This document shows positions 50,401 to 53,400 of a stretch of DNA of 64,000 nucleotides, piece by piece. Every line of letters begins with the position of its first letter. Positions within the stretch are counted from its first letter, which is position 1. This stretch comes from Escherichia coli (lineage in GTDB: Bacteria; Pseudomonadota; Gammaproteobacteria; Enterobacterales; Enterobacteriaceae): NCBI RefSeq assembly GCF_045037415.1, contig NZ_CP173438.1. The stretch is one strand, 5' to 3'. Made by a program: the position numbers.

Positions 50401-53400
50401 ATAGTTTCTCTTTCCTGCTATACACTATCTCAATATTGCGCTTTTTTGAGATAAGCACATGGCTATCAAATCACCTCCCGGACTTATTCCTTTATCACAC
50501 TTATCGGGTGAGGAACTCCTGGCCCACCTGCGCTTTAACCGGGTTACCGATGAAAAAGGACGTTATCTGCCTTTTGATGAGTTGCAGTACCGCATCAAAA
50601 AAGGAGAAAACGTCGATGTGGCGTGGACGCTTACCCGTCTGGCGCGCAACGCGGCGATCCAACGAATTAATTATTGCAATGAAGCGGGTGAACAGGCCGG
50701 ATTCAACATTACCCCGGTGATTGCAGAAGCGTGCGAGCTTGTCGACAAACGTGCTACCGCGCTGGCGCTGAAAGATCAGACTGAACGGTTACGCGGGGCC
50801 GGAGCCGAGTTAAGCCAGTTACGCCTGGAAGAGCCGATCACCAGCTCCCAGCTGGAAGGTGCGAATACTACAACGCTGGTGGCGAGAAAAATGCTGGAAA
50901 CAGGGCGGTCGCCACGCACTGAAGACGAGCATATGATTGCGGGAAATGCCCGGCTGATGGCGGAAATTCCGCACTTACTCGCAGAACCGCTGACACCTGC
51001 GCTTATTCGCCAGTTACATGCCATTGGTATGGGTGGAATCAATGACGCGAAATATCGTCCGGGAGAATTTCGTGAAACAGATGATGTTGTGATCGCCGAC
51101 TATGATGGCAATATAGTGCATCAACCGCCCGCTGCGGCATTGTTACCGGAACGGCTGGAAAAAGTTTGCCAGTGGTTAAACAGCCATGAAGGGTATATTC
51201 ATCCGTTGGTCCGTGCCTGCATTCTGCATTTTATGCTGGCCCATGAACATCCGTTTCGGGATGGCAACGGGCGCACCAGTCGGGCGCTGTTTTACTGGTA
51301 TATGCTGAAATCGGGCTACGATGTCTTTAAATATATTTCCATCAGCCGTTTGCTTCATGCTGCACCGGTCAAATATGCCGCCAGCTACCAGTACACTGAA
51401 TCAGATGGTATGGATCTGACTTATTTCCTTGAATATCAGGCGGGTGTCATTAAACGTGCTCTGCAAAACTGGCAGCAGCATATCGATGAAATTACACAAC
51501 GAAGCGCAAAACTCGATAGTGTGCTGTTTAGCTCTGGTGTGCTTAAACGCCTGAATCCGCGCCAGGTAACGCTCCTGAATGTGATGCTCGCCAATCCGGG
51601 GAAAGAGTACACAGTTGCTGAAATTAGCGCGAGCTTGGGCGTCTCTGATAATACGGCTCGAGCTGATTTACGGACAATTGTTAAAGAAGGATTCGCGCAA
51701 GAGAAAAGAATTAATAACCAGCAAGCAGTGTACGTCGCACACTACCCGCTGTAGCTTTTGCCCGTAAATTCGTGATAGCCGTCGTAAAGCTGTTACCGAC
51801 TGGCGAAGATTTCGCCAGTCACGTCTACCCTTGTTATACCTCACACCGCAAGGAGACGATCATGACCAATAATCCCCCTTCAGCACAGATTAAGCCCGGC
51901 GAGTATGGTTTCCCCCTCAAATTAAAAGCCCGCTACGACAACTTTATCGGTGGCGAATGGGTAGCGCCTGCCGATGGCGAGTATTACCAGAACCTGACGC
52001 CGGTGACCGGGCAGCTACTGTGCGAAGTGGCGTCTTCGGGCAAACGAGACATCGATCTGGCGCTGGATGCTGCGCATAAAGTGAAAGATAAATGGGCGCA
52101 CACCTCGGTGCAGGATCGCGCGGCGATTCTGTTTAAGATTGCCGATCGAATGGAACAAAACCTTGAACTTTTAGCGACGGCAGAAACCTGGGATAACGGC
52201 AAACCCATTCGCGAAACCAGTGCTGCCGACGTGCCGCTGGCGATTGATCATTTTCGCTATTTCGCCTCGTGTATTCGGGCGCAGGAAGGTGGGATCAGTG
52301 AAGTGGATAGCGAAACCGTGGCCTATCATTTCCATGAACCGTTAGGCGTGGTGGGGCAGATTATCCCGTGGAACTTCCCGCTGCTGATGGCGAGCTGGAA
52401 AATGGCCCCCGCGCTGGCGGCGGGCAACTGTGTGGTGCTGAAACCCGCACGTCTTACTCCGCTTTCTGTACTGCTGCTAATGGAAATCGTCGGTGATTTA
52501 CTGCCGCCAGGGGTGGTGAACGTGGTCAATGGCGCAGGTGGGGAAATTGGCGAATATCTGGCGACCTCGAAACGCATCGCCAAAGTGGCGTTTACCGGCT
52601 CAACGGAAGTGGGCCAACAAATTATGCAATACGCCACGCAAAACATTATTCCGGTGACGCTGGAGCTGGGCGGCAAATCGCCAAATATCTTCTTTGCTGA
52701 TGTGATGGATGAAGAAGATGCCTTTTTCGATAAAGCGCTGGAAGGCTTTGCACTGTTTGCCTTTAACCAGGGCGAAGTTTGCACCTGTCCAAGCCGTGCT
52801 TTAGTGCAGGAGTCTATCTACGAACGCTTTATGGAACGCGCTATCCGCCGTGTCGAAAGCATTCGCAGCGGTAACCCGCTCGACAGCGTGACGCAAATGG
52901 GCGCGCAGGTTTCTTACGGGCAACTGGAAACCATCCTCAACTACATTGATATCGGTAAAAAAGAGGGCGCTGATGTGCTCACCGGCGGGCGACGTAAGCT
53001 GCTGGAAGGCGAACTGAAAGACGGCTACTACCTCGAACCGACGATTCTGTTTGGTCAGAACAATATGCGCGTGTTCCAGGAGGAGATTTTTGGCCCGGTG
53101 CTGGCGGTAACCACCTTCAAAACGATGGAAGAAGCGCTGGAGCTGGCGAACGATACGCAATATGGTCTGGGCGCGGGCGTCTGGAGCCGCAACGGTAATC
53201 TGGCCTATAAGATGGGGCGCGGCATTCAGGCAGGGCGCGTGTGGACCAACTGTTATCACGCTTACCCGGCACATGCGGCGTTTGGCGGCTACAAACAATC
53301 AGGCATTGGCCGTGAAACCCACAAAATGATGCTTGAGCATTACCAGCAAACCAAGTGCCTGCTGGTGAGCTACTCGGATAAACCGTTGGGGCTGTTCTGA

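Follow-up and report, generated by a model that had tools for sequence, protein, structure and literature searches.

A conserved palindrome in the native aldB promoter of Escherichia coli, a probable protein-binding operator

The perfect palindrome that lies between a Fic gene and aldB in an Escherichia coli genome belongs to the aldB promoter, of which it is an old and conserved part, and is independent of the Fic gene. Judged by comparison of promoter sequences, it is probably an operator, that is, a dyad over the -35/spacer region to which a protein would bind. For the identity of this protein Fis is a plausible, though tentative, candidate.

Setting of the palindrome in the aldB promoter

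The element, GACTGGCGAAGATTTCGCCAGTC, consists of two perfect 10-bp arms around the 3-nt centre GAT; its position and those of the neighbouring features are given in Table 1. The preliminary description of this DNA, which had reported a perfect 10-bp inverted repeat with a 3-nt loop, is confirmed by the sequence, and the spacings given there, about 40 nt to aldB and 45 nt from the Fic stop codon, were measured as 41 nt (to the aldB ATG) and 43 nt, respectively. Its exact sequence has a single occurrence in the window (the whole analyzed stretch of 64,000 nucleotides) and none in 100 shuffles. Of perfect inverted repeats whose arms reach 10 bp or more, the window contains six distinct ones, compared with 0.7 expected. 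That this palindrome is not a product of chance follows from its conservation across genera. Folded as single-stranded DNA, it has an energy of -11.4 kcal/mol (z = -7.1). Further copies of the dyad in the window, with up to two mismatches allowed, are weak matches only, somewhat more numerous than the shuffle mean.

Table 1. Features of the aldB promoter region and its surroundings (positions in the window)
Feature	Position	Strand	Sequence and details	Basis
Palindrome	51798..51820	.	GACTGGCGAA-GAT-TTCGCCAGTC; spans about -40 to -18 of the aldB promoter; centred on 51809 (about -29)	
15-bp core (putative Fis site)	51802..51816	.	GGCGAAGATTTCGCC	Fis motif match, rule-based scan
CRP-like box	51768..51789	.	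aatTCGTGAtagccgTCGTAaag; core 51771-51786, centre about -59.5	Cross-genus conservation
RpoS-type -10 element	51824..51832	+	TCTACCCTT; hexamer TACCCT 51826-51831, C at -13	PMC5650638 table
aldB Shine-Dalgarno and start codon	51850..51864	+	AAGGAGA; ATG 51862	Invariant in alignment
aldB coding sequence	51862..53400	+	512 aa	
Fic-specific segment, absent from K-12	50382..51748	+	Two operator-like repeats and Fic ORF; context only	

The comparative alignment provides a base-level map of the promoter, with a CRP-like box, the dyad, an RpoS-type -10 element, and a Shine-Dalgarno sequence. The palindrome stands between the CRP-like box and the -10 element, over the -35/spacer region, and its 3' end is separated from TACCCT by 5 nt. 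No variation across genera is seen in GTGA and TCGTAAA of the CRP-like box; the consensus TGTGA-N6-TCACA and the title of Xu and Johnson (1995) suggest that this box is a CRP site. The -10 hexamer is listed, with no -35 given, in a review table that attributes it to Xu and Johnson (1995) (PMC5650638), and CTACCCTT(G) is kept in enterobacterial aldB orthologues. The transcription start is predicted near 51838; in the part of the supplement text of Ettwiller 2016, Yan 2018, and Cho 2014 that was searched, no aldB start-site entry was found. Because the palindrome lies 5' of the published -10 element and of the predicted start, it should be outside the aldB mRNA.

This map corrects the picture of the locus. 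What had been described as a Fic-aldB spacer is in fact the native promoter of aldB, of ancient origin, a point that the description misses; the Fic gene (ORF 50459-51754, with a Pfam Fic domain) stands just upstream and leaves the promoter unaltered.

Conservation across genomes and genera

The comparison with K-12 proposed in the preliminary description revealed an identical palindrome in MG1655 (NC_000913.3:3756553-3756575), a strain without the Fic gene. The stretch is present in 5356 of 5426 E. coli genomes, at 5358 places with a median of one per genome, and the 40 nt around the palindrome are 100% identical in 4401 of these 5356. Besides K-12, approximately 3,780 Fic-less E. coli genomes, or about 70% of E. 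coli genomes, carry the identical palindrome. A REP/BIME-type repeat is out, as it needs many copies per genome. In Citrobacter, Enterobacter, Kluyvera, and Pluralibacter, the palindrome is present whatever the upstream gene, with no Fic at the site. The element is kept while its 5' neighbour varies and may be the yiaY terminator, Fic, yiaY itself, selB, or a divergent gene.

The orthologue set comprised 136 aldB promoters with 49 distinct 30-mers, and the search patterns left the palindrome out. Among the 49 distinct orthologues, the arms (C)TGGCGA and TCGCCA(G) are nearly invariant in sequence, on a par with the CRP-like box, the -10 element, and the Shine-Dalgarno sequence, while the flanks and the centre diverge, the centre always being AT-rich. 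TGGCGA is always at a distance of 24 nt from the -10 element and at one of 36 to 38 nt from the CRP-like box. Conservation is stronger in the left arm than in the right one, in which G is replaced by A in 12 of the 49 sequences; such a difference would not be expected if the site were strictly symmetric.

Changes on both sides of the dyad were observed in 30 cells, a number reached in 1 of 500 shuffles (shuffle value 19.9 +/- 3.0), although kinship alone can yield such covariation. The double changes are confined to outer pairs, as in the A-T to G-C changes at palindrome positions 2/22, and none affects the inner seven pairs. In Enterobacter-like sequences the dyad extends to 11 bp, CCGGCTGGCGA-GAAAA-TCGCCAGCCGG. 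In Pluralibacter the spacer is scrambled, yet the palindrome is perfect (10+3+10), with double changes at outer pairs. In P. vulneris and Enterobacter sp. Ag1, the right arm is lost and both the CRP-like box and the -10 element are retained. Loss of an arm from a promoter that is otherwise kept suits a regulatory add-on better than a contact of RNA polymerase.

Proteins that may occupy the dyad

Of the three options raised in the preliminary description, namely a protein-binding site, an RNA processing or stability hairpin, and an insertion scar, the first is favoured by the conservation, the position within the promoter, and the fixed spacing. In the most likely scenario, the dyad would be occupied in rapid growth by a dimeric DNA-binding protein that blocks access of RNA polymerase to the aldB promoter. 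On entry into stationary phase, the repressing protein would fall, cAMP-CRP and RpoS would rise, and aldB would be turned on.

The repression of aldB by Fis, its activation by CRP, and its dependence on RpoS are documented, and Xu and Johnson (1995) reportedly described five DNase I footprints of Fis there. Because of this repression and because the core GGCGAAGATTTCGCC has the Fis signature, Fis is the leading candidate for the protein on the dyad, an assignment that we make tentatively. G and C stand at -7 and +7 of the core, A and T at -3 and +3, and G and C at -4 and +4; four of its five central bases are A/T. Of the 49 distinct orthologues, 46 match the rule; strict matches to it occur about twice per kb in the window and hence are not rare. 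Finer rules, reportedly from Shao et al. in 2008, require a purine at -3 and a pyrimidine at +3 and exclude A from -4 and T from +4. The Fis motif spans about 15 nt, with an A/T tract flanked by conserved G/C (PMC3064808). In the Fis ChIP-chip study of Grainger 2006, aldB gave a signal, the weakest of 51 known targets detected, at array resolution (PMC1636352).

With Fis sites over RpoS/sigma-70 core promoters (aldB, dps), the element shares the 15-bp core, the outer G/C, the purine at -3 and pyrimidine at +3, and the AT-rich centre. It also shares the -35/spacer position at a Fis-repressed stationary-phase promoter, which suits occlusion. In contrast to sites of this degenerate motif, the palindrome has far more conserved arms and a dyad extended to 23 bp. 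The arms are conserved at -8, -6, -5, and the mirror positions, which Fis does not read; together with the double changes at outer pairs, this suggests a dimer more sequence-specific than Fis.

Such a dimer could be a dedicated, sequence-specific aldB regulator, for example an ethanol- or aldehyde-responsive one, with CTGGCGA-N5-TCGCCAG as its operator, acting instead of Fis or besides it. We consider this possible, if rather improbable. It is also doubtful that the dyad serves a Fis-independent regulator gating the RpoS/CRP-dependent aldB across Enterobacteriaceae, possibly in ethanol/aldehyde stress. A dedicated regulator agrees with the near invariance of 14 arm positions over several genera amid diverging promoter DNA, with the longer Enterobacter-like dyad, with the perfect Pluralibacter palindrome and its double changes at outer pairs, with the excess of both-side changes over shuffles, and with the fixed spacing to the -10 element. 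However, such an excess can arise among related sequences free of constraint, a second copy of the dyad is absent from the window, no such aldB regulator is named in the literature searched, and no regulator gene accompanies aldB in the genera examined. A full-text literature search for the palindrome and neighbouring promoter strings gave no relevant match.

With operators of the TetR, MarR, and IclR types, the element has in common a perfect dyad with half-sites of 6-7 bp, an AT-rich centre of 3-5 bp, a fixed place relative to the -10 element, and a single copy per genome. Unlike classical repressor operators, it has neither a known nor an aldB-adjacent cognate regulator, and no matching published motif was found; we know of no E. 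coli regulator motif that matches the dyad. The published motif of CyuR, the only other predicted regulator of aldB, is unlike it. A CRP-S/Sxy-type site (TGCGA-N6-TCGCA) was rejected, as the spacer here is 5 bp and not 6. A class II CRP promoter with the AT-rich centre as its -10 element was set aside, as its register differs among genera and the published -10 is found at another place. Binding by a specific regulator, if it occurs, would close a gap in the account of how aldB is induced (e.g., by ethanol) and would add modestly to a well-studied class of promoters. Beyond aldB, the significance is little.

MerR-type promoters (soxS, copA, merT) have a spacer of 19-20 bp between a consensus -35 and the -10 element, and the dyad within it is centred at about -24. 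The palindrome resembles such operators (soxS, copA, zntA) in lying between the -35 and -10 positions, with an apparent spacing of 19 bp if TGGCGA is taken as the -35 element. Its centre is about 5 bp, or half a helical turn, further upstream, a consensus -35 is absent, and the promoter is RpoS/CRP-dependent; an operator of this type was rejected.

RNA-level, polymerase, and non-functional readings

Instead of an operator in DNA, the palindrome could encode an RNA hairpin on transcripts reading through from Fic, yiaY, or selB, where it would stabilise the 3' end, cause pausing, or insulate the aldB promoter as a weak terminator. The RNA structure prediction suggested in the preliminary description indeed gives a stable hairpin, present in the minimum-energy fold of the spacer. 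There is no intrinsic terminator on the + strand between the Fic stop codon and aldB (51755-51861), and no other one for yiaY in Citrobacter or for selB in Pluralibacter; moreover, several E. coli variants (L083, L085) show G-U-compatible changes on the + strand. Nevertheless, Enterobacter, Leclercia, and Kluyvera retain the element next to a divergent upstream gene, from which no read-in is expected, and K-12 keeps it despite a canonical yiaY terminator 5' of it. The core of the stem is conserved by sequence and its inner seven pairs hardly covary, and the constant spacing is to the -10 element rather than to any stop codon. Wobble-type cells are balanced, 19 on the + strand and 22 on the - strand, and Enterobacter has a C.A mismatch; the lack of strand bias in mismatches argues against an RNA hairpin. 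The processing or stability hairpin is therefore disfavoured, and we regard a role in read-through RNA as unlikely. A search of Rfam produced no family match.

With Rho-independent terminators and 3'-stabilising hairpins, the palindrome shares a GC-rich 10-bp stem, a 3-nt loop, and, in some genomes, a place 3' of a stop codon. It differs from them in having no U-tract, in lying 5' of the aldB start, in being kept where there is no read-in, and in a stem conserved at the level of sequence. An intrinsic terminator was rejected: the hairpin is present, but ACGTCTACCC follows it directly and the T-run is missing, so that the earlier statement that this is not a standard intrinsic terminator stands. 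A cis-regulatory hairpin of the aldB mRNA was rejected as well, as the published -10 element and the predicted start are 3' of the palindrome.

A direct contact of RNA polymerase, either through TGGCGA as a -35-like element 19 bp from the -10 element or through a sigma-54-type -24/-12 promoter in TGGCGAAGATTTCGC, is very unlikely. Conservation within the element is highest in the left arm TGGCGA, which keeps an invariant distance to the -10 element, but this arm matches TTGACA at only three of six positions with a 19-bp spacing. Neither variant explains the conserved right arm or the promoter of P. vulneris, which is kept without the element. In E. coli the GG-N10-GC spacing of TGGCGAAGATTTCGC is exact, and aldB of Phytobacter has been reported to be under the sigma-54 activator AcoR (PMC12648084). 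On the other hand, TGGCAC and TTGCA are matched only partly, and the essential GC is AC in the 12 sequences, of the Enterobacter type, with the altered right arm. In the RNA-seq table of Bonocora 2015, which flags bound genes, no sigma-54 site is given for aldB, and aldB falls along with RpoS-type genes; the RpoN SELEX paper does not include aldB.

We give equally little credence to a functionless palindrome that persists owing to low divergence. Most of the sequences are from close relatives within the Enterobacteriaceae, and in two lineages the element is gone from a promoter that persists; however, the flanks and the centre diverge freely around arms as conserved as the other promoter elements, and in Pluralibacter the palindrome is perfect within a scrambled spacer. 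Finally, the idea of a scar, a target-site feature, or a recombination site of the Fic insertion has nothing but proximity to the Fic gene in its favour and is refuted by the identical palindrome in K-12 and the other Fic-less E. coli genomes, by the Fic-less genera that carry it, and by the junction of Fic-specific DNA, which ends at about 51748, 50 nt 5' of the palindrome.

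The palindrome in the aldB promoter

The palindrome in the spacer between the Fic gene and aldB is a real, conserved feature with an ordinary explanation. Its position and its two perfect arms are exactly as in the preliminary description, which had placed it about 45 nt after the Fic stop and 40 nt before aldB (43 and 41 nt by our count). The exact sequence occurs once in the window and in none of 100 shuffles; the window has six distinct perfect inverted repeats whose arms are 10 bp or longer, compared with 0.7 expected by chance. As single-stranded DNA the hairpin is stable (-11.4 kcal/mol, z = -7.1), and the minimum-energy RNA fold of the spacer includes it.

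For the stationary-phase promoter of aldB, a table in the review PMC5650638 (citing Xu & Johnson 1995) gives TACCCT as the -10 and, in that table, no -35. This hexamer lies five bases 3' of the palindrome and is preceded by TC. The resulting element, TCTACCCTT, is similar to the RpoS-type extended -10, and we infer a nearby transcription start. Since the palindrome lies upstream of both the -10 and this start, it is promoter DNA, outside the aldB mRNA from this promoter. A conserved box farther upstream is a candidate CRP site. A CpxR site near aldB was predicted in a Salmonella study.

Coordinates of features in the window (promoter positions relative to a start taken near 51838)
Feature	Position	Remarks
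waaU/waaL palindrome	12601-12628	perfect 14-bp arms (TAAGAAGTGAGTTT-TAACTCACTTCTTA region) between convergent genes; looks like a bidirectional terminator
envC palindrome	22715-22741	perfect 10-bp arms, TACGCCAGCG-N7-CGCTGGCGTA, in coding sequence
selB-yiaY spacer palindromes	48995-49021, 49078-49100	perfect, AT-rich, upstream of yiaY
yiaY terminator, left stem	50345-50354	CGGCTGGCGA
30-nt copies	50374-50403, 50424-50453	80% identical, 50 nt apart, directly upstream of Fic start; each an inverted repeat TATCTCAAAA...TTTTGAGATA
Fic-specific DNA	50382-51748	
Fic ORF	50459-51754	431 aa; Pfam Fic domain, residues 177-281
Terminator-like hairpin, minus strand	51719-51751	T-rich tail; within 3' end of Fic ORF
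Candidate CRP site, cGTGA-N6-TCGTA	51771-51786	centre about -59.5, a class I CRP position
Imperfect inverted repeat, CRP-like box region	51772-51796	GTGATAGC...GCTGTTAC, paired in predicted spacer RNA fold; also GTAAA-N5-GTTAC
Equivalent of CGGCTGGCGA in the dyad	51797-51806	
Palindrome	51798-51820	GACTGGCGAAGATTTCGCCAGTC; 10-bp arms flanking GAT; about -40 to -18, centre -29
Fis-motif core	51802-51816	GGCGAAGATTTCGCC
-10 TACCCT	51826-51831	
Putative aldB start	near 51838	
aldB ATG	51862	41 nt 3' of palindrome

A protein-anchored scan of species genomes provided aldB loci from Citrobacter, Enterobacter, Leclercia, Pseudescherichia, Kluyvera, Pluralibacter, and E. albertii. A metagenome scan added 120 further loci, using the anchors TCGTAAA, CTAYYYTT, AAGGAGA, and ATGAC, so that the palindrome itself was not selected for. 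Combined with the E. coli variants, the set comprises 136 promoters, or 49 distinct 30-mers. Conserved in the promoter are the CRP-like box, the dyad, CTACCCTT(G), and the start codon with its Shine-Dalgarno sequence. Among the 49 30-mers, the dyad arms TGGCGA and TCGCCA are nearly invariant; the flanks vary, as do the three to five central bases, yet the centre is A/T-rich in every case. TGGCGA lies at a constant 24 nt from the -10 and at 36 to 38 nt from the CRP-like box. In Pluralibacter the spacer is scrambled and the dyad is perfect (AGCTGGCGAA-CAA-TTCGCCAGCT). In Enterobacter-type sequences the dyad is often 11 bp long, with a C.A mismatch in 12 sequences; in P. vulneris and Enterobacter sp. 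Ag1 the right arm is gone and the box and the -10 are retained.

The upstream neighbour of aldB is yiaY with its terminator in K-12, Fic in this window and E. albertii, yiaY without a terminator in Citrobacter, selB in Pluralibacter and two Enterobacter spp., a divergent ROK-type gene in E. cloacae, Leclercia, and P. vulneris, and a divergent 151-aa gene in Kluyvera. Thus, the dyad belongs to aldB and not to the 3' end of an upstream gene.

Candidate binding proteins and alternative explanations

The dyad behaves like palindromic operators that overlap core promoters. The nearest known class is the Fis site within a Fis-repressed stationary-phase promoter, and sequence rules support the dyad as a putative member. 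The 1995 abstract of Xu and Johnson reportedly describes five Fis sites and one Crp site at aldB, mapped by DNase I footprinting. The aldB promoter is already well known, and those footprints possibly cover the dyad, taken as a discrete element with deep conservation. In Fis ChIP-chip, aldB was detected as the weakest among 51 known targets (PMC1636352). The core fits the published motif, in which conserved G/C bracket an A/T tract within about 15 nt (PMC3064808). With its centre at -29, a Fis dimer would block RNA polymerase. Finer rules, said to be those of Shao and co-workers (2008), are satisfied in a rule-based scan by the core and by 46 of the 49 orthologues; such matches, at about two per kb, are not rare. 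Fis is not known to read positions -8, -6, and -5, counted from the core centre. These positions are invariant in the dyad, and the outer pairs co-vary. Because of the frequent matches, the invariant non-Fis positions, and the co-varying outer pairs, a dedicated regulator yet to be described is kept as a serious, if rather unlikely, rival for binding the dyad.

An RNA processing or stability hairpin, proposed in the preliminary description beside a protein-binding site, is disfavoured. A 12-pair helix over the 49 sequences has 79% of cells paired, compared with 21-43% in slid controls. Double-sided changes affect 30 cells versus 19.9 +/- 3.0 in shuffles (reached by 1 of 500), and the covariation score is 0.151 versus 0.126 (reached by 3 of 500), in a test where kinship of the sequences alone can exceed shuffles without structural constraint. 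Nearly all of this signal comes from the outer pairs, chiefly palindrome positions 2/22 (G-C, n = 24; A-U, n = 14); the inner seven pairs show no double-sided change in the 49 sequences. Single-sided changes would yield G-U in 19 cells on the plus strand versus 22 on the minus strand. On balance, a protein-binding DNA dyad is favoured over an RNA structure, because the stem is conserved as sequence and not merely as pairing, its mismatches have no strand bias, and it is kept beside divergent genes and at a fixed distance upstream of the -10.

A sigma-54 element (GG-N10-GC) is unlikely, as the Bonocora 2015 table and an RpoN SELEX study list no such site at aldB and Enterobacter does not keep the GC. 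Neither a terminator nor an RNA family fits the dyad: the plus strand contains no terminator-like site from Fic to aldB, in agreement with the earlier view that this is not a standard intrinsic terminator, and the palindrome has no Rfam match. A repeated extragenic palindrome is rejected, since a 40-nt query (palindrome and -10) is found once per genome, with 100% identity in 4401 genomes.

The Fic gene and the flanks of aldB

A scar of the Fic insertion, also proposed earlier with K-12 as the comparison to make, is ruled out. K-12 MG1655 lacks the Fic gene, with aldB directly after yiaY across a 164-bp spacer, and carries the identical 23-mer (NC_000913.3:3756553-3756575); in the window, the palindrome lies 50 nt beyond the Fic-specific DNA. 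A 201-nt query matched 5356 of 5426 complete E. coli genomes, only 1575 matches reaching into Fic; the others begin at query position 50 or 59, at or just past the Fic stop.

In an identical genome, the RefSeq annotation of the ORF is Fic family protein. Because its C-terminus contains a weak DeoR-like helix-turn-helix (Pfam, residues 384-412), the protein may be DNA-binding, with the repeats upstream of its gene as possible targets; the two 30-nt copies there resemble a paired operator or promoter of the Fic gene. In K-12, ...AACTATCTC is joined straight to CTGTAA..., the final codons and stop of the Fic ORF of other strains. Since these are retained, the Fic-less allele seems to have arisen by loss of a 1.37-kb segment and not to be an empty insertion site. 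In a third allele, one complete TATCTCAAAA...TTTTGAGATA hairpin is kept and Fic is absent (alleles compared at the loci of K-12, L001, and strain N3, L085, and at locus L084). Fic is present in E. albertii; in Citrobacter, both Fic and a separate yiaY terminator are absent. In the window, the yiaY terminator has as its left stem the 10-mer that forms the left dyad arm of Enterobacter and Citrobacter, perhaps by coincidence or through an old local duplication.

The 3' flank of aldB is a variable region in E. coli: here (53400-60000) it contains a frameshifted GH127 gene, an MFS transporter, and an AraC regulator, in K-12 yiaW-yiaV, and in other strains araD or a type I restriction endonuclease (loci L001 and L083-L086).
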